This document shows positions 23,358 to 50,894 of a stretch of DNA of 64,000 nucleotides, piece by piece. The stretch spans positions 102,116,001 to 102,180,000 of the forward strand of contig NC_086097.1 of NCBI RefSeq assembly GCF_963921235.1. Reading direction: 5' to 3'. The notes under the pieces were generated by a model. That model was not told where the DNA came from. It searched no databases and was given only the letters and a program-made list of their open reading frames with translations. Origin of the DNA: Mobula hypostoma (Eukaryota). How positions within the stretch are numbered: the stretch's first letter is position 1; every line of letters begins with the position of its first letter. The translations under genes and the position numbers were made by a program.

Positions 23358-23539
23358 ATTTAGTCTGATGGTGGCTGATCATGTTTCATGCTTTCAGCCA
23401 AGTTGGGCTCTGCAGGGTGCAATGGAAACTAACGATATCCTGGTTTAGATGGCATGATTCACTACTACTTCTGGAATTTTCTAAGACATTTTTGAATATG
23501 GCTGCCCATGCTTTAATAGAATTGTTCCTGGTACCCTAC

Positions 23540-24000
23540 CTGTAGGCCTACCCCAACTTGCCACAAATCAAAGCTGATACCCCAGCTACACATGCCATTT
23601 CATTGTCTATTTGGAGCAGTCCACATTTCAAACCAATCGGTACCATTCCCCAACAATTCCTTCGCTACACTGGGGCTGCTTCTTGCACCTGTGTGGAATT
23701 CATCAATTTCATCAACTTTCTCCCGCCTCGGACCATTTCCTCCTCTCTCTCCTTTCTGGATAGAACCCCAGCTACGACTAATCCACCAAATACCACAACT
23801 ACCAAACCTACACCTCCTCCCAGCCTGTCACATTTAAGAACACCATGACTGTCTCAGATTCTATATCTGTTCCTGCTGCCTCTCTTCCAGAGAGAAGTCC
23901 TTCCACCCGCAGACACTGGACATGTCTTTTTTCCAGGGAATGGAACACTCCCTCTGGCACCACTCCATCCCCAGTTATTGATGGAGCACTGGTCTACAAC
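23540..24000 (+). mobile_element. Old degenerate Penelope-like element, RT C-terminal part (left of the array)
   Basis: ORF 23558..23848 FLRYTGAASCTCVEFINFINF...TISSSLSFLD aligns with SLRYINDCIGAVSCTHAELVDFINF...SISDTSLPFLD of the young Penelope ORF 49236..50249. Confidence 0.75.
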
Positions 24001-24066
24001 GTTCAAAGTAAATCAAAGGTATTTAAAAATGTAAAGTTGAAAGTAAACCTGATCTCTTTCATTCCT

Positions 24067-27000
24067 AGCATGTTTACTCTCCCCACACACCCGGGATAAA
24101 CTCCTTTCAGCACGTTTACTCTCCCCCCACACAGGGGATAAACTCCTTTCAGCACGTTTACTCTCCCCCCACACCGGGGATAAACTCCTTTCAGCACGTT
24201 TACTCTCCCCCCACACAGGGGATAAACTCCTCTCAGCACGTTTACTCTCCCCCCACACCGGGGATAAACTCCTTTCAGCACGTTTACTCACCCCCCACAC
24301 CGGGGATAAACTCCTTTCAGCACGTTTACCCTCCCCCCACACCGGGATAAACTCCTTTCAGCACGTTTACCCTCCCCCAACACCCGGGATAAACTCCTTT
24401 CAGCACGTTTACCCTCCCCCCACACCGGGGATAAACTCCTTTCAGCACGTTTACCCTCCCCCCACACCGGGGATAAACTCCTTTCAGCACGTTTACCCTC
24501 CCCCCACACCGGGGATAAACTCCTTTCAGCACGTTTACTCTCCCCCCACACCGGGGATAAACTCCTTTCAGCACGTTTACTCACCCCCCACACCGGGGAT
24601 AAACTCCTTTCAGCACGTTTACTCTCCCCCCACACCGGGGATAAACTCCTTTCAGCACGTATACTCTCCCCCCACACCGGGGATAAACTCCTTTCATCAC
24701 ATTTACTCTCCCCCCACACCGGGGATAAACTCCTTTCAGCACGTTTACTCTCCCCCCACACCGGGGATAAACTCCTTTCAGCACGTTTACTCTCCCCCCA
24801 CACCGGGGATAAACTCCTTTCAGCACGTTTACTCTCCCCCCACACCGGGGATGAACTCCTTTCAGCAGGTTTACTCTCCCCCCACACCGGGGACAAACTC
24901 CTTTCAGCACGTTTACTCTCCCCCCACACCGGGGATAACCTCCTTTCAGCACGTTTACCCTCCCCCCACACCGGGGATAAACTACTTTCAGCACGTTTAC
25001 TCTCCCCCCACACCGGGGATAAACTCCTTTCAGCACGTTTACCCTCCCCCCACACCGGGGATAAACTCCTTTCAGCACGTTTACTCTCCCCCCCACACCG
25101 GGGATAAACTCCTTCCAGCACGTTTACCCTCCCCCCACACCGGGGATAAACTCCTTTCAGCACGTTTACTCACCCCCCACACCGGGGATAAACTCCTTTC
25201 AGCACGTTTACTCTCCCCCCACACCGGGGATAAACTCCTTTCAGCACGTTTACTCTCCCCCCACACCGGGGATAAACTCCTTTCAGCACGTTTACCCTCC
25301 CCCCACACCGGGGATAAACTCCTTTCAGCACGTTTACTCTCCCCCCACACCGGGGATAAACTCCTTTCAGCACGTTTACTCTCCCCCCACACCGGGGATA
25401 AACTCCTTTCAGCACGTTTACTCTCCCCCCACACCGGGGATAAACTCCTTTCAGCACGTTTACCCTCCCCCCACACCGGGGATAAACTCCTTTCAGCACG
25501 TTTACTCTCCCCCCACACCGGGGATAAACTCCTTTCAGCACGTTTACCCCCCCCCCCACACCGGGGATAAACTCCTTTCAGCACGTTTACTCTCCCCCCC
25601 ACACCGGGGATAAACTCCTTTCAGCACGTTTACCCTCCCCCCACACCGGGGATAAACTCCTTTCAACACGTTTACCCTCCCCCCACACCGGGGATAAACT
25701 CCTTTCAGCACGTTTACTCTCCCCCCCACACCGGGGATAAACTCCTTTCAGCACGTTTACTCTCCCCCCACACCGGGGATAAACTCCTTTCAGCACGTTT
25801 ACCCTCCCCCCCACACCAGTGATAAACTCCTTTCAGCACGTTTACTCTCCCCCCACACCGGGGATAAACTCCTTTCAACACGTTTACTCTCCCCCCACAC
25901 CGGGGATAAACTCCTTTCAGCACGTTTACCCTCCCCCCACACCGGGGATAAACTCCTTTCAGCACGTTTACACTCCCCCCACACCGGGGATAAACTCCTT
26001 TCAGCACGTTTACCCTCCCCCCCACACCAGTGATAAACTCCTTTCAGCACGTTTACTCTCCCCCCAACACCGGGGATAAACTCCTTTCAGCACGTTTACT
26101 CTCCCCCCACACCCCGAGGATATACTCTTTCCAGCACGTTTACTCTCCCCCCACACCGGGAATAAACTCCTTTCAGAACGTTTACTCTCCCCCCACACCG
26201 GGGATAAACTCCTTTCAGCACGTTTACTCTCCCCCCACACTGGGGATAAACTCCTTTCAGCACGTTTACCCTCCCCCCACACCGCCGATAAACTCCTTTC
26301 AGCACGTTTACTCTCCCCCCCCAGCGGGGATAAACTCCTTTCAGCACGTTTACTCTCCCCCCACACCGGGGATAAACTCCTTTCAGCACGTTTACCCTCC
26401 CCCCCCACACCGGGGATAAACTCCTTTCAGCACGTTTACCCTCCCCCCCCACACCGGGGATAAACTCCTTTCAGCACGTTTACCCTCCCACCACACCGGG
26501 GATAAACTCCTTTCAGCACGTTTACTCTCCCCCCACACCAGGGATAAACTCCTTTCAGCACGTTTACTCTCCCCCCACACCGGGGACAAACTCCTTTTAG
26601 TACGTTTACCCTCCCCCCCACAGCAGGGATAAACTCCTTTCAGCACGTTTACCCTCCCCCCACACCGGGGATAAACTCCTTTCAGCACGTTTACCCCCAC
26701 CCCACACCGGGGATAAACTCCTTTCAGCACGTTTACCCTCCCCCCCACACCGGGGATAAACTCCTTTCAGCACGTTTACTCTCCCCCCCACACCGCGGAT
26801 AAACTCCTTTCAGCACGTTTACTCTCCCCCCACACCAGGGATAAACTCCTTTCAGCACGTTTACCCTCCCCCCCACACCGCGGATAAACTCCTTTCAGCA
26901 CGATTACCCTCCCCCCACACCAGGGATAAACTCCTTTCAGCACGTTTACTCTCCCCCCACACCGGGGATAAACTCCTTTCAGCACGTTTACTCTCCCCCC

Positions 27001-30000
27001 ACACCGGGGATAAACTCCTTTCAGCACGTTTACTCTCCCCCAACACCAGGGATAAACTCCTTTCAGCACGTTTCCTCTCCCCCCCCACACCACCGATAAA
27101 TTCCTTTCAGCACGTTTACTCTCCCCCCACACCGCCGATAAACTCCTTTCAGCACGTTTACTCTCCCCCCACACCGGGGATAAAGTCCTTTCAGCACGTT
27201 TACCCTCCCCCCCACACCGGGGATAAACTCCTTTCAGCACGTTTACCCTCCCCACCCACACCGGGGATAAACTCCTTTCAGCACGTTTACCCTCCCCCCA
27301 CACCGGGGATAAACTCCTTTCAGCACGTTTACTCTCCCCCCACACCGGGGATAAACTCCTTTCAGCACGTTTACTCTCCCCCCACACCGGGGATAAACTC
27401 CTTTCAGCACGTTTACCCTCCCCCCACACCGGGGATAAACTCCTTTCAGCACGTTTACTCTCCCCCCACACCGGGGATAAACTCCTTTCAGCACGTTTAC
27501 TCTCCCCCCACACCGGGGATAAACTCCTTTCAGCACGTTTACCCTCCCCGCACACCGGGGATAAACTCCTTTCAGCACGTTTACTCTCCCCCGACACCGG
27601 GGATAAACTCCTTTCAGCACGTTTACTCTCCCCCCCACACCGGGGATAAACTCCTTTCAGCACGTTTACTCTCCCCCCCCCCCCACACCGGGGATAAACT
27701 CCTTTCAGCACATTTACCCTCCCCCCCCACACCGGGGATAAACTCCTTTCAGCACGTTTACTCTCCCCCGACACCGGGGATAAACTCCTTTCAGCACGTT
27801 TACTCTCCCCCCACACCGGGGATAAACTCCTTTCAGCACGTTTACTCTCCCCCCCACACCGGGGATAAACTCCTTTCAGCACGTTTACTCTCCCCCCACA
27901 CCGGGGACAAACTCCTTTCAGCACGTTTACTCTCCCCCCACACCGGGGATAAACTCCTTTCAGCACGTTTACTCTCCCCCCCAACCGGGGATAAACTCCT
28001 TTCAGCACGTTTACTCTCCCCCCACACTGCCGATATACTCCTTTCAGCACATTTACCCTCCCCCCACACCGGGGATAAACTCCTTTCAGCACGTTTACTC
28101 TCCCCCCCCCCCACACCGGGGATAAACTCCTTTCAGCACGTTTACCCTCCCCCCACACCGGGGATAAACTCCTTTCAGCACGTTTACTCTCCCCCCACAC
28201 CGGGGATAAACTCCTTTCAGCACGTTTACCCTCCCCCCACACCGGGGATAAACTCCTTTCAGCACGTTTACCCTCCCCCCACACCGGGGATAAACTCCTT
28301 TCAGCACGTTTACCCTCCCCCCACACCGGGGATAAACTCCTTTCAGCACGTTTACTGTCCCCCGACACAGGGGATAAACTCCTTTCAGCACGTTTACTCT
28401 CCCCCCACACCGGGGATAAACTCCTTTCAGCACGTTTATTCTCCCCCTACACCGGGGATAAACTCCTTTCAGCACGTTTACTCTCCCCCCACACCGGGGA
28501 TAAACTCCTTTCAGCACGTTTACTCTCCCCCCCCACCGGGGATAAACTCCTTTCAGCACGTTTACCCTCCCCCCACACCGGGGATAAACTCCTTTCAGCA
28601 CGTTTACTCTCCCCCCACACCGGGGATAAACTCCTTTCAGCACGTTTACTCTCCCCCCACACCGGGGATAAACTCCTTTCAGCACGTTTACTCTCCCCCC
28701 ACACCGGGGATAAACTCCTTTCAGCACGTTTACTCTCCCCCCACACCGGGGATAAACTCCTTTCAGCACGTTTACTCTCCCCCCACACCGGGGATAAACT
28801 CCTTTCAGCACGTTTACTCTCCCCCCACACCGGGGATAAACTCCTTTCAGCACGTTTACTCTCCCCCCCACACCGGGGATAAACTCCTTTCAGCACGTTT
28901 ACCTCCCCCCACACCGGGGATAACTCCTCACCCCCCCCCACACCGGGGATAAACTCCTTTCAGCACGTTTACTCTCCCCCCACACCGGGGATAAACTCCT
29001 TTCAGCACGTTTACCCTCCCCCCACACCGGGGATAAACTCCTTTCAGCACGTTTACTCTCCCCCCACACCGGGGATAAACTCCTTTCAGCACGTTTACTC
29101 TCCCCCCACACCGGGGATAAACTCCTTTCAGCACGGGGATAAACTCCTTTCAGCACGTTTACTCTCCCCCCACACCGGGGATAAACTCCTTTCAGCACGT
29201 TTACTCTCCCCCCACACCGGGGATAAACTCCTTTCAGCACGTTTACTCTCCCCCCACACCGGGGATAAACTCCTTTCAGCACGTTTACTCTCCCCCCACA
29301 CCGGGGATAAACTCCTTTCAGCACGTTTACTCTCCCCCCACACCGGGGATAAACTCCTTTCAGCACGTTTACTCTCCCCCCACACCGGGGATAAACTCCT
29401 TTCAGCACGTTTACTCTCCCCCCACACCGGGGATAAACTCCTTTCAGCACGTTTACCCCCCCCCACACCGGGGATAAACTCCTTTCAGCACGTTTACTCT
29501 CCCCCCACACCGGGGATAAACTCCTTTCAGCACGTTTACTCTCCCCCCACACCGGGGATAAACTCCTTTCAGCACGTTTACTCTCCCCCCACACCGGGGA
29601 TAAACTCCTTTCAGCACGTTTACTCTCCCCCCACACCGGGGATAAACTCCTTTCAGCACGTTTACTCTCCCCCCACACCGGGGATAAACTCCTTTCAGCA
29701 CGTTTACCTCCCCCCACACCGGGGATAAACTCCTTTCAGCACGTTTACCCTCCCCCCACACCGGGGATAAACTCCTTTCAGCACGTTTACTCTCCCCCCA
29801 CACCGGGGATAAACTCCTTTCAGCACGTTTACGGGGATAAACTCCTTTCAGCACGTTTACCCTCCCCCCACACCGGGGATAAACTCCTTTCAGCACGTTT
29901 ACTCTCCCCCCACACCGGGGATAAACTCCCCCACACCGGATAAACTCAGCACGTTTACTCTCCCCCCACACCGGGGATAAACTCCTTTCAGCACGTTTAC

Positions 30001-33000
30001 GTCCTCTCCCCCCACACCGGGGATAAACTCCTTTCAGCACGTTTACTCTCCCCCCCACACCGGGGATAAACTCCTTTCAGCACGTTTACTCTCCCCCCCC
30101 CCCGGATAAACTCCTTTCAGCACGTTTACCTCCCCCCACACCGGGGATAAACTCCTTTCAGCACGTTTACCCTCCCCCCACACCGGGGATAAACTCCTTT
30201 CAGCACGTTTACTCTCCCCCCACACCGGGGATAAACTCCTTTCAGCACGTTTACCCTCCCCCCCACACCGGGGATAAACTCCTTTCAGCACGTTTACTCT
30301 CCCCCCACACACCGGGGATAAACTCCTTTCAGCACGTTTACTCTCCCCCCACACCGGGGATAAACTCCTTTCAGCACGTTTACTCTCCCCCCACACCGGG
30401 GATAAACTCCTTTCAGCACGTTTACTCTCCCCCCACACCGGGGATAAACTCCTTTCAGCACGTTTACCTCCCCCCACACCGGGGATAAACTCCTTTCAGC
30501 ACGTTTACCCTCCCCCCACACCGGGGATAAACTCCTTTCAGCACGTTTACTCTCCCCCCACACCGGGGATAAACTCCTTTCAGCACGTTTACTCTCCCCC
30601 CACACCGGGGATAAACTCCTTTCAGCACGTTTACTCCCCCCCACACCCGGGGATAAACTCCTTTCAGCACGTTTACTCTCCCCCCACACCGGGGATAAAC
30701 TCCTTTCAGCACGTTTACTCTCCCCCCACACCGGGGATAAACTCCTTTCAGCACGTTTACTCTCCCCCCACACCGGGGATAAACTCCTTTCAGCACGTTT
30801 ACCCCCCCCCACCGGGGATAAACTCCTTTCAGCACGTTTACCCCCCCCACACCGGGGATAAACTCCTTTCAGCACGTTTACCTCCCCCCCACACCGGGGA
30901 TAAACTCCTTTCAGCACGTTTACTCTCCCCCCACACCGGGGATAAACTCCTTTCAGCACGTTTACTCTCCCCCCACACCGGGGATAAACTCCTTTCAGCA
31001 CGTTTACTCTCCCCCCACACCGGGGATAAACTCCTTTCAGCACGTTTACTCTCCCCCCACACCGGGGATAAACTCCTTTCAGCACGTTTACTCTCCCCCC
31101 ACACCGGGGATAAACTCCTTTCAGCACGTTTACTCTCCCCCCACACCGGGGATAAACTCCTTTCAGCACGTTTACTCTCCCCCCACACCGGGGATAAACT
31201 CCTTTCAGCACGTTTACTCTCCCCCCACACCGGGGATAAACTCCTTTCAGCACGTTTACTGTCCCCCCACACAGGGGATAAACTCCTTTCAGCACGTTTA
31301 CTCTCCCCCCACACCGGGGATAAACTCCTTTCAGCACGTTTACTCTCCCCCCACACCGGGGATAAACTCCTTTCAGCACGTTTACTCTCCCCCCACACCG
31401 GGGATAAACTCCTTTCAGCACGTTTACCCTCCCCCCACACCGGGGATAAACTCCTTTCAGCACTTTACTCTCCCCCCACACCGGGGATAAACTCCTTTCA
31501 GCACGTTTACTCTTTCTCCCCCCCCCACACCGGGGATAAACTCCTTTCAGCACGTTTACTCTCCCCCCACACCGGGGATAAACTCCTTTCAGCACGTTTA
31601 CTCTCCCCCCACACCGGGGATAAACTCCTTTCAGCACGTTTACTCTCCCCCCACACCGGGGATAAACTCCTTTCAGCACGTTTACTCTCCCCCCACACCG
31701 GGGATAAACTCCTTTCAGCACGTTTACCTCCCCCCACACCGGGGATAAACTCCTTTCAGCACGTTTACTCTCCCCCCACACCGGGGATAAACTCCTTTCA
31801 GCACGTTTACCCTCCCCCCACACCGGGGATAAACTCCTTTCAGACGTTACTCCTTTCAGCACGTTTACTCCCCCCCACACCGGGGATAAACTCCTTTCAG
31901 CACGTTTACTCTCCCCCCACACCCGGGGATAAACTCCTTTCAGCACGTTTACTCTCCCCCCACACCGGGGATAAACTCCTTTCAGCACGTTTACTCCTCC
32001 CCCCCACACCGGGGATAAACTCCTTTCAGCACGTTTACTCTCCCCCCACACCGGGGATAAACTCCTTTCAGCACGTTTACTCTCCCCCCACACCGGGGAT
32101 AAACTCCTTTCAGCACGTTTACTCTCCCCCCACACCGGGGATAAACTCCTTTCAGCACGTTTACTCTCCCCCCACACCGGGGATAAACTCCTTTCAGCAC
32201 GTTTACCCTCCCCCCACACACCGGGGATAAACTCCTTTCAGCACGTTTACTCTCCCCCCACACCGGGGATAAACTCCTTTCAGCACGTTTACTCTCCCCC
32301 CACACCGGGGATAAACTCCTTTCAGCACGTTTACTCTCCCCCCACACCGGGGATAAACTCCTTTCAGCACGTTTACTCTCCCCCCACACCGGGGATAAAC
32401 TCCTTTCAGCACGTTTACTCTCCCCCCACACCGGGGATAAACTCCTTTCAGCACGTTTACTCTCCCCCCCACACCGGGGATAAACTCCTTTCAGCACGTT
32501 TACTCTCCCCCCACACCGGGGATAAACTCCTTTCAGCACGTTTACTCTCCCCCCACACCGGGGATAAACTCCTTTCAGCACGTTACTCACACCGGGGATA
32601 AACTCCTTTCAGCACGTTTACTCTCCCCCCACACCGGGGATAAACTCCTTTCAGCACGTTTACTCTCCCCCCACACCGGGGATAAACTCCTTTCAGCACG
32701 TTTACTCTCCCCCCACACCGGGGATAAACTCCTTTCAGCACGTTTACTCTCCCCCCACACCGGGGATAAACTCCTTTCAGCACGTTTACTCTCCCCCCCA
32801 CACCGGGGATAAACTCCTTTCAGCACGTTTACCCTCCCCCCCACACCGGGGATAAACTCCTTTCAGCACGTTTACACCTCCCCCCCTCCCCACACCGGGG
32901 ATAAACTCCTTTCAGCACGTTTACTCTCCCCCCACACCGGGGATAAACTCCTTTCAGCACGTTTACTCCTCCCCCCACACCGGGGATAAACTCCTTTCAG

Positions 33001-36000
33001 CACGTTTACTCTCCCCCCACACCGGGGATAAACTCCTTTCAGCACGTTTACTCTCCCCCCACACCGGGATAAACTCCTTTCAGCACGTTTACCTCCCCCC
33101 ACACCGGGGATAAACTCCTTTCAGCACGTTTACCCTCCCCCCACACACCGGGGATAAACTCCTTTCAGCACGTTTACCCTCCCCCCACACCGGGGATAAA
33201 CTCCTTTCAGCACGTTTACCCTCCCCCCACACCGGGGATAAACTCCTTTCAGCACGTTTACTCCCCCACACCGGGATAAACTCCTTTCAGCACGTTTACC
33301 CTCCCCCACACCGGGGATAAACTCCTTTCAGCACGTTTACTCTCCCCCCCCCCCCACACCGGGGATAAACTCCTTTCAGCACGTTTACTCTCCCCCCACA
33401 CCGGGGATAAACTCCTTTCAGCACGTTTACCCTCCCCCCACACCGGGGATAAACTCCTTTCAGCACGTTTACTCTCCCCCCACACCGGGGATAAACTCCT
33501 TTCAGCACGTTTACTCTCCCCCCCACACCGGGGATAAACTCCTTTCAGCACGTTTACTCTCCCCCCCACTCCGGGGATAAACTCCTTTCAGCACGTTTAC
33601 TCTCCCCCCACACCGGGGATAAACTCCTTTCAGCACGTTTACTCTCCCCCCACACCGGGGATAAACTCCTTTCAGCACGTTTACTCTCCCCCCACACCGG
33701 GGATAAACTCCTTTCAGCACGTTTACCCTCCCCCCACACCGGGGATAAACTCCTTTCAGCACGTTTACTCTCCCCCCACACCGGGGATAAACTCCTTTCA
33801 GCACGTTTACCCTCCCCCCACACCGGGGATAAACTCCTTTCAGCACGTTTACCTTAAACTCCTTTCAGCACGTTTACTCTCCCCCCACACCGGGGATAAA
33901 CTCCTTTCAGCACGTTTACTCTCCCCCCACACCGGGGATAAACTCCTTTCAGCACGTTTACCTCCCCCCACCTTTCAGCATAAACTCCTTTCAGCACGTT
34001 TACTCTCCCCCACACCGGGGATAAACTCCTTTCAGCACGTTTACTCTCCCCCCACACCGGGGATAAACTCCTTTCAGCACGTTTACTCTCCCCCCACACC
34101 GGGGATAAACTCCTTTCAGCACGTTTACTCTCCCCCCACACCGGGGATAAACTCCTTTCAGCACGTTTACCTCCCCCCACACCGGGGATAAACTCCTTTC
34201 AGCACGTTTACTCTCCCCCCACACCGGGGATAAACTCCTTTCAGCACGTTTACTCTCCCCCCCACACCGGGGATAAACTCCTTTCAGCACGTTTACTCTC
34301 CCCCCACACCGGGGATAAACTCCTTTCAGCACGTTTACTCTCCCCCCACACCGGGGATAAACTCCTTTCAGCACGTTTACTCTCCCCCCACACCGGGGAT
34401 AAACTCCTTTCAGCACGTTTACTCTCCCCCCACACCGGGGCACGTTTACTCTCCCCCCAACTCCTTTCAGCACGTTTACTTTACTCCCCCCACCCACACC
34501 GGGGATAAACTCCTTTCAGCACGTTTACTCTCCCCCCACACCGGGGATAAACTCCTTTCAGCACGTTTACTCTCCCCCCACACCGGGGATAAACTCCTTT
34601 CAGCACGTTTACCCTCCCCCCACACCGGGGATAAACTCCTTTCAGCACGTTTACTCTCCCCCCACACCGGGGATAAACTCCTTTCAGCACGTTTACTCTC
34701 CCCCCACACCGGGGATAAACTCCTTTCAGCACGTTTACTCTCCCCCCACACCGGGGATAAACTAAACTCCTTTCAGCACTTTACTCTCCCCCCCACACCG
34801 GGGATAAACTCCTTTCAGCACGTTTACTCTCCCCCCACACCGGGGATAAACTCCTTTCAGCACGTTTACTCTCCCCCCACACCGGGGATAAACTCCTTTC
34901 AGCACGTTTACTCTCCCCCCACACCGGGGATAAACTCCTTTCAGCACGTTTACTCTCCCCCCACACCGGGGATAAACTCCTTTCAGCACGTTTACTCTCC
35001 CCCCACACCGGGGATAAACTCCTTTCAGCACGTTTACTCTCCCCCCACACCGGGGATAAACTCCTTTCAGCACGTTTACTCTCCCCCCACACCGGGGATA
35101 AACTCCTTTCAGCACGTTTACTCTCCCCCCACACCGGGGATAAACTCCTTTCAGCACGTTTACTCTCCCCCCACACCGGGGATAAACTCCTTTCAGCACG
35201 TTTACTCTCCCCCCACACCGGGGATAAACTCCTTTCAGCACGTTTACCCTCCCCCCACACCGGGGATAAACTCCTTTCAGCACGTTTACTCTCCCCCCAC
35301 ACCGGGGATAAACTCCTTTCAGCACGTTTACCTCCCCCCACACCGGGGATAAACTCCTTTCAGCACGTTTACTCTCCCCCCACACCGGGGATAAACTCCT
35401 TTCAGCACGTTTACTCTCCCCCCACACCGGGGATAAACTCCTTTCAGCACGTTTACTCTCCCCCCACACCGGGGATAAACTCCTTTCAGCACGTTTACCT
35501 CCCCCCACACCGGGGATAAACTCCTTTCAGCACGTTTACTCTCCCCCCACACCGGGGATAAACTCCTTTCAGCACGTTTACTCTCCCCCCACACCGGGGA
35601 TAAACTCCTTTCAGCACGTTTACTCTCCCCCCACACCGGGGATAAACTCCTTTCAGCACGTTTACTCTCCCCCCACACCGGGGATAAACTCCTTTCAGCA
35701 CGTTTACTCCCCCCACACCGGGGATAAACTCCTTTCAGCACGTTTACTCTCCCCCCACACCGGGGATAAACTCCTTTCAGCACGTTTACTCTCCCCCCAC
35801 ACCGGGGATAAACTCCTTTCAGCACGTTTACTCTCCCCCCACACCGGGGATAAACTCCTTTCAGCACGTTTACTCTCCCCCCCACACCGGGGATAAACTC
35901 CTTTCAGCACGTTTACCCTCCCCCCACACCGGGGATAAACTCCTTTCAGCACGTTTACCTCCCCCCACACCGGGGATAAACTCCTTTCAGCACGTTTACC

Positions 36001-39000
36001 CTCCCCCCACACCGGGGATAAACTCCTTTCAGCACGTTTACTCTCCCCCCACACCGGGGATAAACTCCTTTCAGCACGTTTACTCTCCCCCCACACCGGG
36101 GATAAACTCCTTTCAGCACGTTTACCTCCCCCCACACCGGGGATAAACTCCTTTCAGCACGTTTACTCTCCCCCCACACCGGGGATAAACTCCTTTCAGC
36201 ACGTTTACTCTCCCCCCACACCGGGGATAAACTCCTTTCAGCACGTTTACTCTCCCCCCACACCGGGGATAAACTCCTTTCAGCACGTTTACTCTCCCCC
36301 CACACCGGGGATAAACTCCTTTCAGCACGTTTACTCTCCCCCCACACCGGGGATAAACTCCTTTCAGCACGTTTACTCTCCCCCCACACCGGGGATAAAC
36401 TCCTTTCAGCACGTTTACTCTCCCCCCACACCGGGGATAAACTCCTTTCAGCACGTTTACTCTCCCCCCACACCGGGGATAAACTCCTTTCAGCACGTTT
36501 ACTCTCCCCCCACACCGGGGATAAACTCCTTTCAGCACGTTTACCCTCCCCCCACACCGGGGATAAACTCCTTTCAGCACGTTTACTCTCCCCCCACACC
36601 GGGGATAAACTCCTTTCAGCACGTTTACCCTCCCCCCACACCGGGGATAAACTCCTTTCAGCACGTTTACCCTCCCCCCACACCGGGGATAAACTCCTTT
36701 CAGCACGTTTACTCTCCCCCCACACCGGGGATAAACTCCTTTCAGCACGTTTACCTCCCCCCACACCGGGGATAAACTCCTTTCAGCACGTTTACTCTCC
36801 CCCCACACCGGGGATAAACTCCTTTCAGCACGTTTACTCTCCCCCCACACCGGGGATAAACTTTTCACGTTTACTCTCCCCCCACACCGGGGATAAACTC
36901 CTTTCAGCACGTTTACTCTCCCCCACACCGGGGATAAACTCCTTTCAGCACGTTTACCTCCCCCCACACCGGGGATAAACTCCTTTCAGACCGGGGATAA
37001 ATCCTTTCAGACGTTTCTCTCCCCCCACACCGGGGGATAAACTCCTTTCAGCACGTTTACTCTCCCCCCACACCGGGGATAAACTCCTTTCAGCACGTTT
37101 ACTCTCCCCCCACACCGGGGATAAACTCCTTTCAGCACGTTTACTCTCCCCCCCCACCGGGGATAAACTCCTTTCAGCACGTTTACTCTCCCCCACACCG
37201 GGGATAAACTCCTTTCAGCACGTTTACTCTCCCCCCCACACCGGGGATAAACTCCTTTCAGCACGTTTACTCTCCCCCCACACCGGGGATAAACTCCTTT
37301 CAGCACGTTTACTCTCCCCCCACACCGGGGATAAACTCCTTTCAGCACGTTTACTCTCCCCCCACACCGGGGATAAACTCCTTTCAGCACGTTTACCCTC
37401 CCCCCACACCGTGGATAAACTCCTTTCAGCACGTTTACCCTCCCCCCACACTGGGGATAAACTCCTTTCAGCACGTTTACTCACCCCCCACACCGGGGAT
37501 AAACTCCTTTCAGCACGTTTACTCTCCCCCCACACCGGGGATAAACTCGTTTCAGCACGTTTACTCTCCCCCACACCGGGGATAAACTCCTTTCAGCACG
37601 TTTACTCTCCCCCCACACCGGGGATAAACTCCTTTCAGCACGTTTACTCTCCCCCCACACCGGGGATAAACTCCTTTCAGCACGTTTACTCTCCCCCCAC
37701 ACCGCCGATAAACTCCTTTCAGCACGTTTACCCTCCCCCCACACCAGGGATAAACTCCTTTCAGCACGTTTACCCTCCCCCCACACCAGGGATAAACTCC
37801 TTTCAGCACGTTTACTCTCCCCCCACACCGGGGATAAACTCCTTTCAGCACGTTTACTCTCCCCCCGCCCCAGCGGGGATAAACTCCTTTCAGCACGTTT
37901 ACTCTCCCCCACACTGCCGATAAACTCCTTTCAGCACGTTTACTCTCCCCCCACACCGGGGATAAACTCCTTTCAGCACGTTTACCCTCCCCCCACACCG
38001 GGGATAAACTCCTTTCAGCACGTTTACCCTCCCCCCACACCGGGGATAAACTCCTTTCAGCACGTTTACTCTCCCCCCACACCGGGGATAAACTCCTTTC
38101 AGCACGTTTACTCTCCCCCCACACCGGGGATAAACACCTTTCAGCACGTTTACTCTCCCCCCACACCGGGGATAAACTCCTTTCAGCACGTTTACTCTCC
38201 CCTCACACCGGGTATAAACTCCTTTCAGCACGTTTACTCTCCCCCCACACCGGGGATAAACTCCTTTCAGCACGTTTACTCTCCCCCCACACCGCCGATA
38301 AACTCCTTTCAGCACATTTACCCTCCCCCCACACCGGGGATAAACTCCTTTCAGCACGTTTACCCTCCCCCCCACACCGCCGATAAACTCCTTTCAGCAC
38401 GTTTACTCTCCCCCCACACCGGGGATAAACTCCTTTCAGCACGTTTACCCTCCCCCCACACCGGGGATAAACTCCTTTCAGCACGTTTACTTTCCCCCCA
38501 CACCGGGGATAAACTCCTTTCAGCACGTTTACCCTCCCCCCACACCGGGGATAAACTCCTTTCAGCACGTTTACCCTCCCCCCACACCGGGGATAAACTC
38601 CTTTCAGCACGTTTACTCTCCCCCCACACCGGGGATAAACTCCTTTCAGCACGTTTACTCTCCCCCCACACCGGGGATAAACACCTTTCAGCACGTTTAC
38701 TCTCCCCCCACACCGGGGATAAACTCCTTTCAGCACGTTTACTCTCCCCTCACACCGGGTATAAACTCCTTTCAGCACGTTTACTCTCCCCCCACACCGG
38801 GGATAAACTCCTTTCAGCACGTTTACCCTCCCCCCACACCGGGGATAAATTCCTTTCAGCACGTTTACTCACCCCCCACACCGGGGATAAACTCCTTTCA
38901 GCACGTTTACCCTCCCCCCACACCGGGGATAAACTCCTTTCAGCACGTTTATTCTCCCCCTACACCGGGGATAAACTCCTTTCAGCACGTTTACCCTCCC

Positions 39001-42000
39001 CCCACACCCGGGATAAACTCCTTTCAGCACGTTTACTCTCCCCCCACACCCGGGATAAACTCCTTTCAGCACGTTTACTCTCCCCCCACACCGGGGATAA
39101 ACTCCTTTCATCACGTTTACTCTCCCCCCACACCGGGGATAAACACCTTTCAGCACGTTTACTCTCCCCCCACACCGGGGATAAACTCCTTTCAGCACGT
39201 TTACTCTCCCCTCACACCGGGTATAAACTCCTTTCAGCACGTTTACTCTCCCCCCACACCGGGGATAAACTCCTTTCAGCACGTTTACTCTCCCCCCACA
39301 CCGCCGATAAACTCCTTTCAGCACGTTTACCCTCCCCCCACACCGGGGATAAACTCCTTTCAGCACGTTTACCCTCCCCCCCACACCGCCGATAAACTCC
39401 TTTCAGCACGTTTACACTCCCCCCACACCGGGGATAAACTCCTTTCAGCACGTTTACCCTCCCCCCACACCGGGGATAAACTCCTTTCAGCACGTTTACT
39501 TTCCCCCCACACCGGGGATAAACTCCTTTCAGCACGTTTACCCTCCCCCCACACCGGGGATAAACTCCTTTCAGCACGTTTACCCTCCCCCCACACCGGG
39601 GATAAACTCCTTTCAGCACGTTTACTCTCCCCCCACACCGGGGATAAACTCCTTTCAGCACGTTTACTCTCCCCCCACACCGGGGATAAACACCTTTCAG
39701 CACGTTTACTCTCCCCCCACACCGGGGATAAACTCCTTTCAGCACGTTTACTCTCCCCTCACACCGGGTATAAACTCCTTTCAGCACGTTTACTCTCCCC
39801 CCACACCGGGGATAAACTCCTTTCAGCACGTTTACCCTCCCCCCACACCGGGGATAAATTCCTTTCAGCACGTTTACTCACCCCCCACACCGGGGATAAA
39901 CTCCTTTCAGCACGTTTACCCTCCCCCCACACCGGGGATAAACTCCTTTCAGCACGTTTATTCTCCCCCTACACCGGGGATAAACTCCTTTCAGCACGTT
40001 TACCCTCCCCCCACACCCGGGATAAACTCCTTTCAGCACGTTTACTCTCCCCCCACACCCGGGATAAACTCCTTTCAGCACGTTTACTCTCCCCCCCACA
40101 CCGGGGATAAACTCCTTTCGGCACGTTTACTCTCCCCCCACACCCGGGATAAACTCCTTTCAGCACGTTTACTCTCCCCCTACACCGGGGATAAAGTCCT
40201 TTCAGCAAGTTTACTCTCCCCCCACACCGGGGATAAACTCCTTTCAGCACGTTTACCCTCCCCCCACACCGGGGATAAACTCCTTTCAGCACATTTACTC
40301 TCCCCCCACACCGGGGATAAACTCCTTTCAGCACGTTTACTCTCCCCCCCACACCAGGGATAAACTCCTTTCATCACGTTTACTCTCCCCCCACACCGCC
40401 GATAAACTCCTTTCAGCACGTTTACTCTCCCCCCCACACCGGGGATAAACTCCTTTCAGCACGTTTACTCTCCCGCCACACCGGGGATAAACTCCTTTCA
40501 GTACGTTTACCCTCCCCCAGCACCGGGGATAAACTCCTTTCAGCACGTTTACTCTCCCCCCACACCGGGGATAAACTCCTTTCAGCACGTTTACTCTCCC
40601 CCCACACCGGGGATAAATTCCTTTCAGTACGTTCACTCTCCCCCCCACACCGGGGATAAACTCCTTTCAGCACGTTTACCCTCCCCCCACACCGGGGATA
40701 AACTCCTTTCAGCACGTTTACCCTCCCCCTACACCGGGGACAAACTCCTTTCAGCACGTTTACCCTCCCCCCACACCGGGGATAAACTCCTTTCAGCACG
40801 TTTACCCTCCCCGCCACACCGGGGATAAACTCCTTTCAGCACGTTTACCCTCCCCCCCACACCGGGGATAAACTCCTTTCAGTACGTTTACCCTCACCCC
40901 CAGACCGGGGATAAACTCCTTTCAGTACGTTTCCTCTCCCCGCCACACCGGGGATAAACTCCTTTCAACACGTTTACTCTCCCCCCACACCGGGGATAAA
41001 CTCCTTTCAGCACGTTTACTCTCCCCCCCACACCGGGGATAAACCCCTTTCAGTACGTTCACTCTCCCCGCCACACCGGGGATAAACTCCTTTCAGCACG
41101 TTTACTCTCCCCCCACACCGGGGATAAACTCCTTTCAGCACGTTTACTCTCCCCCCACACCGCCGATAAACTCCTTTCAGCACGTTTACCCTCCCCCCAC
41201 ACCAGGGATAAACTCCTTTCAGCACGTTTACCCTCCCCCCACACCAGGGATAAACTCCTTTCAGCACGTTTACTCTCCCCCCCCCCAGCGGGGATAAACT
41301 CCTTTCAGCACGTTTACCCTCCCCCCACACCGGGGATAAACTCCTTTCAGCACGTTTACTCTCCCCCCCCCCCCAGCGGGGATAAACTCCTTTCAGCACG
41401 TTTACTCTCCCCCACACTGCCGATAAACTCCTTTCAGCACGTTTACTCTCCCCCCCACACCGGGGATAAACTCCTTTCAGCACGTTTACCCTCCCCCCAC
41501 ACCGTGGATAAACTCCTTTCAGCACGTTTACCCTCCCCCTACACTGGGGATAAACTCCTTTCAGCACGTTTACTCACCCCCCACACCGGGGATAAACTCC
41601 TTTCAGCACGTTTACTCTCCCCCCACACCGGGGATAAACTCGTTTCAGCACGTTTACTCTCCCCCACACCGGGGATAAACTCCTTTCAGCACGTTTACTC
41701 TCCCCCCACACCGGGGATAAACTCCTTTCAGCACGTTTACTCTCCCCCCACACCGGGGATAAACTCCTTTCAGCACGTTTACTCTCCCCCCACACCGCCG
41801 ATAAACTCCTTTCAGCACGTTTACCCTCCCCCCACACCAGGGATAAACTCCTTTCAGCACGTTTACCCTCCCCCCACACCAGGGATAAACTCCTTTCAGC
41901 ACGTTTACTCTCCCCCTACACCGGGGATAAACTCCTTTCAGCACGTTTACTCTCCCCCCGCCCCAGCGGGGATAAACTCCTTTCAGCACGTTTACTCTCC

Positions 42001-45000
42001 CCCACACTGCCGATAAACTCCTTTCAGCACGTTTACTCTCCCCCCACAGCGGGGATAAACTCCTTTCAGCACGTTTACCCTCCCCCCACACCGGGGATAA
42101 ACTCCTTTCAGCACGTTTACCCTCCCCCCACACCGGGGATAAACTCCTTTCAGCACGTTTACTCTCCCCCCACACCGGGGATAAACTCCTTTCATCACGT
42201 TTACTCTCCCCCCACACCGGGGATAAACACCTTTCAGCACGTTTACTCTCCCCCCACACCGGGGATAAACTCCTTTCAGCACGTTTACTCTCCCCTCACA
42301 CCGGGTATAAACTTCTTTCAGCACGTTTACTCTCCCCCCACACCGGGGATAAACTCCTTTCAGCACGTTTACTCTCCCCCCACACCGCCGATAAACTCCT
42401 TTCAGCACGTTTACCCTCCCCCCACACCGGGGTTAAACTCCTTTCAGCACGTTTACCCTCCCCCCCACACCGCCGATAAACTCCTTTCAGCACGTTTACA
42501 CTCCCCCCACACCGGGGATAAACTCCTTTCAGCACGTTTACCCTCCCCCCACACCGGGGATAAACTCCTTTCAGCACGTTTACTCTCCCCCCACACCGGG
42601 GATAAACTCCTTTCAGCACGTTTACCCTCCCCCCACACCGGGGATAAACTCCTTTCAGCACGTTTACCCTCCCCCCACACCGGGGATAAACTCCTTTCAG
42701 CACGTTTACTCTCCCCCCACACCGGGGATAAACTCCTTTCAGCACGTTTACTCTCCCCCCACACCGGGGATAAACACCTTTCAGCACGTTTACTCTCCCC
42801 CCACACCGGGGATAAACTCCTTTCAGCACGTTTACTCTCCCCTCACACCGGGTATAAACTCCTTTCAGCACGTTTACTCTCCCCCCACACCGGGGATAAA
42901 CTCCTTTCAGCACGTTTACCCTCCCCCCACACCGGGGATAAATTCCTTTCAGCACGTTTACTCACCCCCCACACCGGGGATAAACTCCTTTCAGCACGTT
43001 TACCCTCCCCCCACACCGGGGATAAACTCCTTTCAGCACGTTTATTCTCCCCCTACACCGGGGATAAACTCCTTTCAGCACGTTTACCCTCCCCCCACAC
43101 CCGGGATAAACTCCTTTCAGCACGTTTACTCTCCCCCCACACCCGGGATAAACTCCTTTCAGCACGTTTACTCTCCCCCCCACACCGGGGATAAACTCCT
43201 TTCGGCACGTTTACTCTCCCCCCACACCCGGGATAAACTCCTTTCAGCACGTTTACTCTCCCCCTACACCGGGGATAAAGTCCTTTCAGCAAGTTTACTC
43301 TCCCCCCACACCGGGGATAAACTCCTTTCAGCACGTTTACCCTCCCCCCACACCGGGGATAAACTCCTTTCAGCACATTTACTCTCCCCCCACACCGGGG
43401 ATAAACTCCTTTCAGCACGTTTACTCTCCCCCCCACACCAGGGATAAACTCCTTTCATCACGTTTACTCTCCCCCCACACCGCCGATAAACTCCTTTCAG
43501 CAGGTTTACTCTCCCCCCCACACCGGGGATAAACTCCTTTCAGCACGTTTACTCTCCCGCCACACCGGGGATAAACTCCTTTCAGTACGTTTACCCTCCC
43601 CCAGCACCGGGGATAAACTCCTTTCAGCACGTTTACTCTCCCCCCACACCGGGGATAAACTCCTTTCAGCACGTTTACTCTCCCCCCACACCGGGGATAA
43701 ATTCCTTTCAGTACGTTCACTCTCCCCCCCACACCGGGGATAAACTCCTTTCAGCACGTTTACCCTCCCCCCACACCGGGGATAAACTCCTTTCAGCACG
43801 TTTACCCTCCCCCTACACCGGGGACAAACTCCTTTCAGCACGTTTACCCTCCCCCCACACCGGGGATAAACTCCTTTCAGCACGTTTACCCTCCCCGCCA
43901 CACCGGGGATAAACTCCTTTCAGCACGTTTACCCTCCCCCCCACACCGGGGATAAACTCCTTTCAGTACGTTTACCCTCTCCCCCAGACCGGGGATAAAC
44001 TCCTTTCAGTACGTTTCCTCTCCCCGCCACACCGGGGATAAACTCCTTTCAACACGTTTACTCTCCCCCCACACCGGGGATAAACTCCTTTCAGCACGTT
44101 TACTCTCCCCCCCACACCGGGGATAAACCCCTTTCAGTACGTTCACTCTCCCCGCCACACCGGGGATAAACTCCTTTCAGCACGTTTACTCTCCCCCCAC
44201 ACCGGGGATAAACTCCTTTCAGCACGTTTACTCTCCCCCCACACCGCCGATAAACTCCTTTCAGCACGTTTACCCTCCCCCCACACCAGGGATAAACTCC
44301 TTTCAGCACGTTTACCCTCCCCCCACACCAGGGATAAACTCCTTTCAGCACGTTTACTCTCCCCCCCCCCCAGCGGGGATAAACTCCTTTCAGCACGTTT
44401 ACCCTCCCCCCACACCGGGGATAAACTCCTTTCAGCACGTTTACTCTCCCCCCCCCCCAGCGGGGATAAACTCCTTTCAGCACGTTTACTCTCCCCCACA
44501 CTGCCGATAAACTCCTTTCAGCACGTTTACTCTCCCCCCACACCGGGGATAAACTCCTTTCAGCACGTTTACTCTCCCCCCCCCCACACCGGGGATAAAC
44601 TCCTTTCAGCACGTTTACTCTCCCCCCACACCGGGGATAAACTCCTTTCAGCACGTTTACCCTCCCCCCACACCGTGGATAAACTCCTTTCAGCACGTTT
44701 ACCCTCCCCCTACACTGGGGATAAACTCCTTTCAGCACGTTTACTCACCCCCCACACCGGGGATAAACTCCTTTCAGCACGTTTACTCTCCCCCCACACC
44801 GGGGATAAACTCGTTTCAGCACGTTTACTCTCCCCCACACCGGGGATAAACTCCTTTCAGCACGTTTACTCTCCCCCCACACCGGGGATAAACTCCTTTC
44901 AGCACGTTTACTCTCCCCCCACACCGGGGATAAACTCCTTTCAGCACGTTTACTCTCCCCCCACACCGCCGATAAACTCCTTTCAGCACGTTTACCCTCC

Positions 45001-47383
45001 CCCCACACCCGGGATAAACTCCTTTCAGCACGTTTACTCTCCCCCTACACCGGGGATAAACTCCTTTCAGCACGTTTACTCTCCCCCCGCCCCAGCGGGG
45101 ATAAACTCCTTTCAGCACGTTTACTCTCCCCCACACTGCCGATAAACTCCTTTCAGCACGTTTACTCTCCCCCCACAGCGGGGATAAACTCCTTTCAGCA
45201 CGTTTACCCTCCCCCCACACCGGGGATAAACTCCTTTCAGCACGTTTACACTCCCCCCACACCGGGGATAAACTCCTTTCAGCACGTTTACTCTCCCCCC
45301 ACACCGGGGATAAACTCCTTTCATCACGTTTACTCTCCCCCCACACCGGGGATAAACACCTTTCAGCACGTTTACTCTCCCCCCACACCGGGGATAAACT
45401 CCTTTCAGCACGTTTACTCTCCCCTCACACCGGGTATAAACTCCTTTCAGCACGTTTACTCTCCCCGCACACCGGGGATAAACTCCTTTCAGCACGTTTA
45501 CTCTCCCCCCACACCGGGGATAAACTCCTTTCAGCACGTTTACCCTCCCCCCACACCGGGGATAAACTCCTTTCAGCACGTTTACTCTCCCCCCACACCG
45601 GGGATAAACTCCTTTCAGTACGTTTACTCTCCCCCCACACCGGGGATAAACTCCTTTCAGCACGTTTACTCTCCCCCCACACCAGGGATAAACTCCTTTC
45701 AGCACGTTTACTCTCCCCCTACACCGGGGATAAACTCCTTTCAGCACCTTTACTCTCCCCCCCCCCAGCGGGGATAAACTCCTTTCAGCACGTTTACTCT
45801 CCCCCCACACCGGGGATAAACTCCTTTCAGCACGTTTACTCTCCCCCCACACCGGGGATAAACTCCTTTCAGCACGTTTACTCTCCCCCCCACACCGGGG
45901 ATAAACTCCTTTCAGCACGTTTATCCTCCCCCCCACACCGGGGATAAACTCCTTTCAGCACGTTTACTCTCCCCCCACACCGGGGATAAACTCCTTTCAG
46001 CACGTTTACTCTCCCCCCACACCGGGGATAAACTCCTTTCAGCACGTTTACCCTCCCCCCACACTGGGGATAAACTCCTTTCATCACGTTTACTCTCCCC
46101 CCTCACTGGGGATAAACTCCTTTCAGCACGTTTACACTCCCCCCCACACCGGGGATAAACTCCTTTCAGCACGTTTACTCTCCCCCCACACCGGGGATAA
46201 ACTCCTTTCAGCACGTTTACCCTCCCCCCACACCGGGGATAAACTCCTTTCAGCACGTTTACCCTCCCCCCACACCGGGGATAAACTCCTTTCAGCACGT
46301 TTACTCTCCCCCCACACCGGGGATAAACTCCTTTCAGAACGTTTACTCTCCCCCCACACCGGGGATAAACTCCTTTCAGCACGTTTACCCTCCCCCCACA
46401 CCGGGGATAAACTCCTTTCAGCACGTTTACCCTCCCCCCACACCCGGGATAAACTCCTTTCAGCACGTTTACTCTCCCCCCCACACTGGGGATAAACTCC
46501 TTTCAGCACGTTTACCCTCCCCCCATACCGGGGATAAACTCCTTTCAGCACGTTTACTCTCCCCCCACACCGCCGATAAACTCCTTTCAGCACGTTTACA
46601 CTCCCCCCACACCGGGGATAAACTCCTTTCAGCACGTTTACCCTCCCCCCACACCGGGGATAAACTCCTTTCAGCACGTTTACTCTCCCCCGACACCGGG
46701 GATAAACTCCTTTCAGCACGTTTACTCTTCCCCCACACCGGGGATAAACTCCTTTCAGCACGTTTACCCTCCCCCCCCCCACACCGCCGATAAACTCCTT
46801 TCAGTACGTTTACTCTCCCCCCACACCGGGGATAAACTCCTTTCAGCATGTTTACTCTCCCCCCACACCGGGGATAAACTCCTTTCAGCACGTTTACCTC
46901 CCCCCACACCGGGGATAAACTCCTTTCAGCACGTTTACCCTCCCCCCTCACCGGGGATAAACTCCTTTCAGCACGTTTACTCTCCCCCCACACCGGGGAT
47001 AAACTCCTTTCAGCACGTTTACTCTCCCCCCACACCGGGGATAAACTCCTTTCAGCACGTTTACCCTCCCCCCACACCCGGGATAAACTCCTTTCAGCAC
47101 GTTTACTCTCCCCCCCACACTGGGGATAAACTCCTTTCAGCACGTTTACTCTCCCCCCACACCGGGGATAAACTCCTTTCAGCACGTTTACCCTCCCCCC
47201 ACACCGGGGATAAACTCCTTTCAGCACGTTTACTCTCCCCCGACACCGGGGATAAACTCCTTTCAGCACGTTTACTCTCCCCCCCCACACCGGGGATAAA
47301 CTCCTTTCAGCACGTTTACTCTCCCCCCACACCGGGTATAAACTCCTTTCAGCACATTTACTCTCCCCCTACACCGGGGATAA
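24067..47383. repeat. Tandem satellite/minisatellite array, 42-bp monomer CCGGGGATAAACTCCTTTCAGCACGTTTACTCTCCCCCCACA, about 555 copies, intronic in MIDEAS
   Basis: Directly visible head-to-tail repeats. Copy number estimated as length/42. Main variants are TACTCT vs TACCCT and C-run length. Confidence 0.99.
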
Positions 47384-48100
47384 GCTGCTTTGCTCCTTTT
47401 ACCCCACCAGGTGACACATCTAGAACACTTTCCCGTAGTTACAACAGGATCTCACCTCCAGCCACATCCTGCTTTCTGCAAAGATCACTCTTTCCATGAC
47501 TTCTGGCTCCACTGTTCCCTCCCACTCCCCAGACATTTTCTCTACAGCCAGAGAGGAGTAACACTTGTCCCTACACCATCCAGGGCCTTTTCAGGTCAGG
47601 CAGCTGCTTCCTCCAAGCATGTTTATTGCATTCAGTGCTCTCGATGTGGCCTTCGGTGAGACCAAGCACAGTCTAAGCTTTGCGAAACTCCTGTGCTTTC
47701 ATCCACCGTGCCCCATCTGGATCCACCTGTTGCCAGATATTTTAATTCCCTTCCACACTGGCCCATTTATCCTCAGCCTCCTTCACCACCAGCATGAGGC
47801 CAAACACAATCTAGCAGAACCGTAGCTCATATACTGCCTGGTTAATCTACAGCCGATAGCATAACATCAAAATCTGCAACTTTGGTAACCTGCTCCCTGT
47901 CCTTTCTTTCTGATATACGCATTCCTCCCAAATTTGTCCCTGCCCCCATCACCCTGCACTTCACCTCCCTCTCCAAACACACACATGCCCATCAATCCAC
48001 TTATCCCCTCCTGCTATTGTTCTCATTGCCATCCCTACCTCCCTTATTTACTTCCCACTCCACTTCCCTTTCTTATCATATTCCATCATCCACATTCCTT
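47384..48100 (+). mobile_element. Old degenerate Penelope-like element, linker, GIY-YIG endonuclease remnant and pyrimidine-rich 3' region (right of the array)
   Basis: ORF 47390..47659 AFCKDHSFHDFWLH...VYCIQCSRCGL matches AFRRDCSLRDSLVH...IYCVQCSRCGLLYIGET of the young copy. Right boundary approximate. Confidence 0.78.
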
Positions 48101-48633: not shown

Positions 48634-48669
48634 AGTCGATGTTTCAGGCCGAGACCCTTCGTCAGGACT
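48634..48669 (-). ncRNA. Minimal type I hammerhead ribozyme motif (Penelope terminus)
   Basis: Minus strand AGTC-CTGACGA-AGGGTCTCGGCCT-GAAAC-ATC-GACT: CUGANGA and GAAA core, stem I AGTC/GACT, stem II hairpin. Confidence 0.72.
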
Positions 48670-50858: not shown

Positions 50859-50894
50859 GGTCCTGACGAAGGGTCTCGGCCTGAAACGTCGACT
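50859..50894 (+). ncRNA. Minimal type I hammerhead ribozyme motif (Penelope terminus)
   Basis: GGTC-CTGACGA-AGGGTCTCGGCCT-GAAAC-GTC-GACT, with GUC cleavage triplet and palindromic ACGT in place of stem III. Confidence 0.75.

Follow-up and report, generated by a model that had tools for sequence, protein, structure and literature searches.

A 42-bp intronic minisatellite of Mobula hypostoma and its likely origin from the linker of a decayed Penelope-like element

The growth of tandem arrays from pieces of transposable elements (TEs) is an already known process, the closest described systems being the Alu-derived minisatellites of the human genome and the satellites derived from short interspersed elements (SINEs), termed sSats, of squamates. 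In a survey of the human genome, 23% of minisatellites are TE-derived, with weak hot regions in AluS, and flanking direct repeats of 5–20 bp appear as initiators in 300 of 7,276 cases, with reference to the model of Haber and Louis and to Jurka and Gentles on direct-repeat initiation (Ahmed and Liang, 2012; PMC3389668). A review of TE-born tandem repeats describes the general route, lists minisatellites born from mouse B1 and MaLR elements, regards the evidence for preferred TE segments in satellite formation as not conclusive and contains no occurrence of the word 'Penelope' (PMC9659126). The array described here lies in a 64,000-nt stretch of the ray Mobula hypostoma, referred to as the window (GCF_963921235.1, NC_086097.1, 102,116,001 to 102,180,000, forward strand), where an old Penelope-like retroelement within an intron of the MIDEAS gene is divided by a long run of 42-bp units. 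The authors of the review we take to be Zattera and Bruschi (2022), and the first author of PMC8557442, used below for the parent type of element, is presumably Craig (Craig et al., 2021).

As in the human TE-derived minisatellites, the ray unit appears to derive from a TE copy, part of which was duplicated following insertion and then amplified locally, and there are both single- and multi-locus forms. However, the human Alu-derived arrays have a mean of about 2.3–2.4 copies, whereas the ray arrays attain between 553 and about 2,700 units and 23–100 kb, and their parent, unlike that of the Alu cases, is a Penelope-like coding region (PMC3389668). The squamate sSats are closest in behaviour to the ray arrays and have a SINE parent, units of 70–290 bp, homogenisation between loci and a subtelomeric bias (Vassetzky, Kosushkin and Ryskov, 2023; PMC10702118). 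In contrast, the ray parent is the coding region of an endonuclease-bearing (EN+) Penelope-like element, the units of 32–43 bp are mostly private to their locus, and a 12-bp direct repeat can be seen at their bounds; a text search of PMC10702118 gave no occurrence of 'direct repeat' or 'Penelope'. Classification as an sSat was rejected on account of the protein-coding parent, the likeness being one of behaviour. In a literature search, with subscription papers outside its scope, neither Penelope-linker satellites nor examples from rays were met with.

The array is very probably a single-locus minisatellite whose unit matches the linker of the surrounding element, likely begun by local tandem duplication and likely continued by recombination-type expansion, and it probably has no function. 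It is a clean case of the known process, with the parent, both junctions and a related species carrying a small array all visible. The added value lies in the series to which it belongs, namely a minimum of 18 arrays that go back to a single short TE segment within one genome, ranging from 2 copies to about 100 kb; this recurrence at the same site raises the array above a routine example, and a new mechanism or function is not among the results. With its known parent and visible nucleating repeat, the series makes it possible to test directly how a duplication of two copies differs from a satellite. It also bears on whether TEs have preferred satellite-forming segments, which is given as unproven (PMC9659126) or was found only weakly in humans (PMC3389668).

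The array, its host element and the source of the unit

The array occupies positions 24067 to 47391 of the window on the + strand, as delimited by Tandem Repeats Finder (TRF) and unit parsing. Parsing gave 553 units across 23,326 bases (typical unit 24528–24569), 420 of them exactly 42 bp, which is also the TRF period. The earlier note on this DNA had spoken of an amplification of about 555-fold; the array lies in the MIDEAS intron 20825–51959. The commonest unit accounts for 196 of the 553, the mean is 1.5 differences per unit, and 153 distinct unit types are present; the array is C-rich on the + strand with a GC content of 55%. Within the 3.48-Gb assembly, an exact 69-base array pattern gave 159 matches and a 22-base junction pattern with up to two mismatches gave 538, all of them inside the window, and neither pattern had a reverse-strand match anywhere in the genome. 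The 42-bp unit is thus present at no other locus and belongs to the single-locus type of TE-derived minisatellite; a multi-locus or centromeric satellite family was rejected, as only one intronic 23-kb locus exists. Ahmed and Liang delimit TE-derived minisatellites, among which the array falls, by a unit of at least 20 bp, a GC content of at least 40% and at least two copies about 95% alike, together with at least 70% likeness to a TE or an overlap of at least one period; the values for GC, unit length and copy number are those given above, and the likeness to a real Penelope copy (34 of 40 bases, see below) is accompanied by colinear flanks.

The flanks were compared with a mixed Penelope profile of 27 copies (26 linker-spanning copies from 58 retained loci and the young element neighbouring the array at 48539–50215), and the protein of that young element served as tblastn query. 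The left half of the host, a decayed end of the reverse transcriptase (RT) region, lies at 23580–23990 (+ strand; profile positions 92–559, 68% identity, 9 deletions; tblastn E 6e-5). The right half, at 47392–47900 (+ strand; profile positions 647–1242, 66% identity, 14 deletions; tblastn E 8e-8), consists of the remaining linker and the decayed GIY-YIG region, with a pyrimidine-rich tail to about 48100. Both lie on one strand and are colinear in the profile, as had been proposed. When the array was collapsed to one unit, a check suggested in the earlier note, the locus gave a single Penelope alignment of 317.5 bits over profile positions 92–1388, whereas with no unit the alignment broke into two. 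The similar identities and deletion counts indicate that the two halves decayed alike, and they are contiguous parts of one element rather than of two. The host was assigned to Penelope by DNA homology to the shared profile, its own linker motif being decayed; it is about one third diverged and has many deletions of 8–20 bp, among them a 14-bp deletion within what was to become the unit. Searches of the genome with the two flanks gave 40 and 39 other matches with 65–88% identity over short parts, and none of the best-placed candidates that were scored was a close twin of the host.

The sequences given in the earlier note for entry and exit are present, and a single-copy Penelope stretch (24052–24066, + strand) leads into the array, its place in the profile being immediately upstream of the unit. 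As a correction to the earlier description, about 55 AT-rich, non-Penelope bases precede this stretch at 23997–24051 (strand not assigned; insert columns of the profile). The insert has an imperfect 14-base direct repeat near its ends, and no look-alike was found in the window or the fetched loci, which were the sequences searched.

To place the unit within the element, use was made of a closest-subfamily set, to which several copies reading CCACACCAGGGATAG at the linker site had led; of the 40 listed matches 30 were fetched, all of them usable. Between the real flanks the typical unit scored 68.8 bits against the subfamily profile, compared with 50.6 ± 1.2 for shuffled units, none of 400 being as good, so that it passed the comparison with shuffled C-rich controls that the earlier note had asked for. 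Without a unit the score was 52.7 bits and with the reversed unit 49.9, the reverse complement also falling within 49.9–52.7. None of the 41 rotations scored better than the register starting AGCACG; the start CCTTTCA given earlier was therefore not retained. With the mixed profile, none of 400 shuffles reached the typical unit in place, and three did so for the edge version. Aligned to the subfamily copy L096, the unit is identical at 34 of 40 bases across one 14-bp and one 1-bp gap, a score reached by none of 500 shuffles. The monomer alone had its best match at the linker site in 22 of the 30 subfamily copies, with 2 of 200 shuffles doing so as often, and its mean score over these copies was equalled by 5 of 200. 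The first partial unit joined to the 9 bases after the last unit makes 42 bases, 36 of which are like the typical unit, a comparison which is partly circular. The unit spans the codons around SRTSALTP..RDRVPL, and the earlier proposal that it is an amplified piece of the element and not a foreign insertion is supported by the score in place and by the L096 alignment. Each of the three refuting outcomes named in that note (a unit aligning no better than shuffled C-rich controls, flanks from two different elements, and the satellite at many loci lacking Penelope flanks) was looked for, and none was obtained.

A number of results weigh against this origin. When tested by itself against the mixed set, the monomer gave a marginal result, being equalled by 46 and 22 of 1000 shuffles in two registers, 5 and 13 of 100 shuffles were as good when the whole element was tested, the read-through at the edges was non-significant (74 of 1000 shuffles), and the isolated monomer gave no nhmmer match. 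The element has another C-rich site, about 120 bases further downstream, which is likewise similar to the unit and is the best match of copy L094. The earlier note had aligned the monomer to the young Penelope element by eye; that alignment is only marginal against the set which includes this element, and the strong match is to another subfamily. The breakpoints of the unit lie in pyrimidine tracts and are not placeable more closely than to about 9 bases, and inspection of the host breakpoints by eye showed only imperfect pyrimidine tracts, with no exact bounding repeat seen in this host.

The weak result for the monomer alone against the mixed copies would also be expected if the unit were foreign C-rich DNA that had entered the element, be it an unrelated satellite or something like a CRISPR repeat, and resembled it by chance. 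The AT-rich insert adjoining the array could be taken in the same sense, and an enterobacterial repeat with a period of 61 bp agrees with the unit in 18 of 23 columns and with one unit variant at 21 of 22 bases. However, none of the 400 shuffles fills the gap as well, the best register restores colinearity, the identity to a real Penelope copy is that given for L096, and there are no unique spacers and no Rfam matches (E ≤ 10; 37400–38600, 1.2 kb of the array). A foreign origin is therefore largely refuted, and its probability is close to nil. Two specific classes were likewise rejected, namely a CRISPR array, since the whole 42-bp unit repeats with no unique spacers and the look-alike record has a period of 61 bp, and a retrozyme or hammerhead array, given the empty Rfam result and a unit coming from the coding linker and not the tail.

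Growth of the array and its state in a related species

The ends of the array carry 0.56–0.66 substitutions per unit outside the C-run and share 13–16 variant types with each other. The centre (28500–36900) carries 0.04–0.10, has at most four variant types in common with either end, and contains more indels and shortened units than the ends. In the 3' half there are exact duplicated blocks at offsets of 1,009, 3,084 and 4,093 bp, equal to 24, 73 and 97 units, and block duplications of kilobase size point to unequal exchange or template-switching repair rather than to unit-by-unit slippage. Judged by general minisatellite biology, the pattern fits recent growth that started in the middle and proceeded through unequal exchange or template switching. 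It should be noted, as a point against this, that the homogeneous and indel-rich centre may in part be the product of assembly smoothing.

Of the 17 sequencing runs listed, four from the species itself (organism A) contain most of the left flank, and four from a related species (organism B) contain 30–36% of its words. Contigs of run X1 of organism A, which is possibly the source of the assembly, cross the left junction (23332–24115) with no differences and the right junction (47332–48200) with one. Organism B likewise has both junctions, in runs X5 and X6 from a single sample, with a divergence of about 4% (32/792 and 35/875) and with contigs continuing into repeat units. Runs X9 and X13, from organisms C and D, lacked coverage of the unique flanks. 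The AT-rich insert is found in the contig of organism B as well, with four extra bases at 24050 in run X6, and the last unit there has A at 47376, which is the base of the Penelope subfamily.

The summed repeat-to-flank depth was 1,600–2,700 in X1, about 90–109 in X5 and 24–27 in X6. When the assembled array was simulated by the de Bruijn approach, the depth was 2,850 at the filter nearest to the X1 contig count and 4,400–5,000 with laxer filters; as the X1 depth is near the simulated one, the assembled array size is plausible. A much shorter array of the same origin, inflated to 23 kb by the assembly, would account for a centre that is low in substitutions yet indel-rich, and the near-exact kilobase blocks might then be false duplications. 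However, this is improbable in view of the X1 depth and the 153 distinct unit types.

Organism B probably carries some 5–35 copies, a rough figure because contig depth is not a copy number. Two facts tell against too firm a reading, namely that the two B runs, although of the same sample, differ four-fold, and that a one-copy ortholog was not seen, the related species examined having a small array. The earlier note had suggested looking for a state of one or two copies in related species; B does have both junctions, albeit with this small array in place of a single copy. The simplest reading is a birth before the split of A and B followed by growth in A, although shrinkage in B may be an alternative. 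It is accordingly likely that the birth of the array predates the split and likely that its growth is recent.

The course of events may be outlined as follows. An old and decayed element in the MIDEAS intron, with the 14-bp deletion within the future unit, would have had a 42-bp piece duplicated in place after its decay and before the split from organism B, through slippage or misaligned repair. Expansion from tens to hundreds of copies would then have occurred in this lineage or allele, as the contrast in depth suggests, and the growth included the kilobase block duplications.

Among the unit variants, one occurs nine times (window positions 26321, 37870, 41285, 41373, 41963, 44370, 44457, 45092 and 45765) and extends the C/G hairpin, as quasi-palindrome correction would. 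It is the copy near 37870 which is identical at 21 of 22 bases to the enterobacterial repeat, found in a phage-collection record (L143), and the likeness was judged coincidental. We take the repeat in this record to be a type I-E CRISPR repeat.

Sister arrays and the question of a linker hot spot

A core pattern chosen from the window unit before any sister arrays were known, required twice within 20–50 bases, gave 1,675 matches in the genome, only 378 of them in the window. The form of the core ending GATAG gave 1,239, none in the window. Sister loci were drawn from the matches listed, so that their counts are lower bounds. At least 17 other Penelope-linker loci were verified to contain tandem repeats of an overlapping 39-bp stretch, from 2 copies to about 100 kb. 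Four of these have about 2 copies, one has 3, one about 4 and three have 7–8, and arrays of intermediate size measure 0.6, 0.9, 1.7, 2.2 and 3.2 kb. The largest are a 46-kb array at C18:89375169–89420830 (89.38–89.42 Mb), one of about 100 kb at C18:87899856–87999392 (87.90–88.00 Mb; L188–L190 and L194–L198 cover both C18 arrays), and one of 71 kb with 32/38-bp linker units at approximately C2:123731953–123802935 (L149–L153 and L171–L173). The two C18 arrays were read at their edges, with the interiors inferred from scattered matches; the largest sister array has about 2,700 units. Of 15 sister loci, 13 have a commonest unit of 39 bp and the other two have one of 43 and 32 bp; at the two C18 loci it measures 37 bp. 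The Penelope-linker origin, which the earlier note had thought possibly undescribed, is supported for the window array, and it is no one-off.

Penelope sequence was found on both sides at 11 sister loci (at one of them as short remnants) and on one side at six. Such flanks are built in for loci found by anchored patterns; in unanchored searches all eight Penelope loci were also flanked by Penelope sequence and one unrelated repeat was dropped. The latter, L132 (G000:C1:127671921), is a 36-bp repeat of 6.6 copies which contains a 12-base core by chance and has no Penelope flank. Among the matches listed, an entry-anchored search gave four loci and an exit-anchored search nine, with one in common, which suggests, as a rough estimate, a few dozen linker loci in total.

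The flanks of the sister hosts are 76% alike downstream (median; 79 of 136 pairs aligned) and 79% upstream (median; 23 of 105 pairs aligned), with an overall maximum of 87%, compared with 75% for 120 background pairs of Penelope copies. The hosts, being no more alike than background, are therefore separate insertions. At the two-copy loci the copies are 92–100% alike and have private changes in common, while their flanks are 78–91% like the family line, and the duplication accordingly came after insertion. These results bear on the alternative that a duplication was already present in an active master element and spread by retrotransposition, with arrays growing at each insertion. In its favour, 39 and 42 bp are both in-frame lengths, so that 13 extra codons keep the frame, and most sister arrays have the same 39-bp register. 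However, the age of the duplications at the two-copy loci, which postdate insertion and decay, and the background-level likeness of the host flanks both contradict a master copy, and the 14-bp deletion in the window unit would break the frame; this alternative is hardly credible.

The two C18 arrays lie 1.4 Mb apart on opposite strands and share a dominant 37-bp variant, while their host flanks are only 77% alike. This pair suggests an exception to independent birth, with exchange between arrays in different Penelope copies. Exchange between arrays is then probable in this genome, and the window array could similarly be a satellite of Penelope origin that was born elsewhere and copied into the host linker by homology-directed repair or ectopic conversion. 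However, the assembly contains no donor, all 42-bp junction matches being in the window, the edge units have the array's 14-bp deletion, and the last unit reads straight into the host; a birth elsewhere is highly improbable. The C2 array of 71 kb, like the window array, often carries a change of the core to CACCGGGGATA, so that these two large arrays may have converged, and the commonest units of the C18 giant arrays are without this change.

In the 1,641-base majority line of the subfamily, the two longest exact direct repeats at 15–60 bp spacing are both 12 bp long and both in the linker, at spacings of 39 and 36 bases. The 39-spaced repeat, CCACCCCACCAG, which corresponds to the two HPT motifs separated by 13 codons, agrees with the sister unit, so that the sister arrays are of the direct-repeat-nucleated minisatellite type, for which a bounding repeat of 5–20 bp is expected. 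Four control sites of the same design gave 2, 2, 3 and 12 matches at 2, 2, 3 and 10 loci, compared with the 1,239 linker matches, where the identical-design pattern covers at least 13 loci. The control sites are conserved in 21, 21, 9 and 19 of 30 copies and the linker core in 13 of 30; fetched control loci had three copies at most, and the loci of the control with 12 matches lie mostly at 5' truncation or inversion junctions. A G-quadruplex or hairpin cause was rejected, with the 39-bp unit at the 52nd and 48th percentile of the element's 39-bp windows; by eye, neither score visibly tracked array length over 16 arrays.

Other observations weigh against a simple repeat trigger. The control panel comprises four sites only, and the 36-bp-spaced pair gave a single locus at the predicted spacing among three matches, so that the length of the microhomology cannot by itself account for the hot spot. 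The window's own array has a different register from its 39-bp sisters, and its unit lacks the 12-bp repeat at its bounds, this repeat being decayed in the host; the direct-repeat trigger is thus shown only for the 39-bp sisters. These sister arrays would mostly be separate births nucleated by the 12-bp repeat, with this part of the element acting as a duplication hot spot, and the linker stretch is likely a recurrent birthplace of satellite DNA by the already known route.

A further proposal is doubtful, though possible: a linker stretch of about 60 bases of this Penelope subfamily might be a sequence-encoded satellite nursery, in which the repeat starts duplications and the CACCRGGGATA core drives runaway growth. 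If so, one dispersed element would repeatedly seed separate satellites of 23–100 kb in two registers, with 2 to about 2,700 copies, and the core could be, for example, a putative binding site of a meiotic recombination or DNA-break factor.

Tandem duplications of 30–57 bp (L154–L159) were also seen to cluster at a shared 5' truncation/inversion point of young Penelope copies, at profile positions of about 690–705. The inverted copy which begins at 50216 in the window (see below) starts at the same point.

Neighbouring elements and the host gene

The young, 5'-truncated Penelope-like element at 48539–50215 (− strand) contains, from a 356-aa open frame, tblastn, Pfam and the profile, an RT end, a CX4CxxC linker motif, a GIY-YIG region and a tail. 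It is 80.5% identical to the mixed profile, of which it is itself a member. Its GIY-YIG match is weak (Pfam E 0.008, below the cut-off), and no Pfam RT match was obtained in the 5'-truncated frame. The layout of EN+ Penelope elements (RT, a CX2–5CxxC linker, then GIY-YIG at the C-terminus) is nevertheless present in this neighbour. The order RT, CX4CxxC, GIY-YIG is that of Neptune/Nematis, in the part available of a paper which covers the parent type and not the array (PMC8557442). The earlier note had recognised in this element a relative of the parent sequence 2 kb from the array; the element is real, but it belongs to a cousin subfamily and is not the nearest parent. Directly adjoining it, at 50216–50928 (+ strand), lies an inverted partial copy consisting of endonuclease and tail, 94% identical to 48600–49317. 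Outside the array region, many fragments of long interspersed elements (LINEs) with RT and endonuclease frames occur at 239–10551 and 60700–63700, among them a 496-aa open RT frame at 5512–7002 (− strand).

MIDEAS is encoded on the − strand. Its ELM2 exon matched solved MIDEAS chains (E 2e-10) and Pfam ELM2 (E 5e-10), and the last exon had 19 protein matches among 50 candidates, mostly named MIDEAS, the top one being from Mobula hypostoma at 96%. The exon upstream of the host intron lies at 51960–52133 (− strand; tblastn with P0001 and P0002), with a GT donor at 51959, and the downstream exon at 20645–20824 (− strand; tblastn, edges approximately 20824–20645), with an AG acceptor ending at 20825; according to tblastn the two are consecutive. 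A NAGNAG tandem splice acceptor is present at 20825–20828 on the − strand, where a single Gln distinguishes P0001 from P0002.

The array occupies 75% of the 31.1-kb intron and could be used as a ready length-polymorphism marker. Through it the intron gains 1,103 CpG dinucleotides and 519 RCGTG pentamers. Alterations of the second CpG in the unit belong to the commoner variants, which is compatible with germline methylation.

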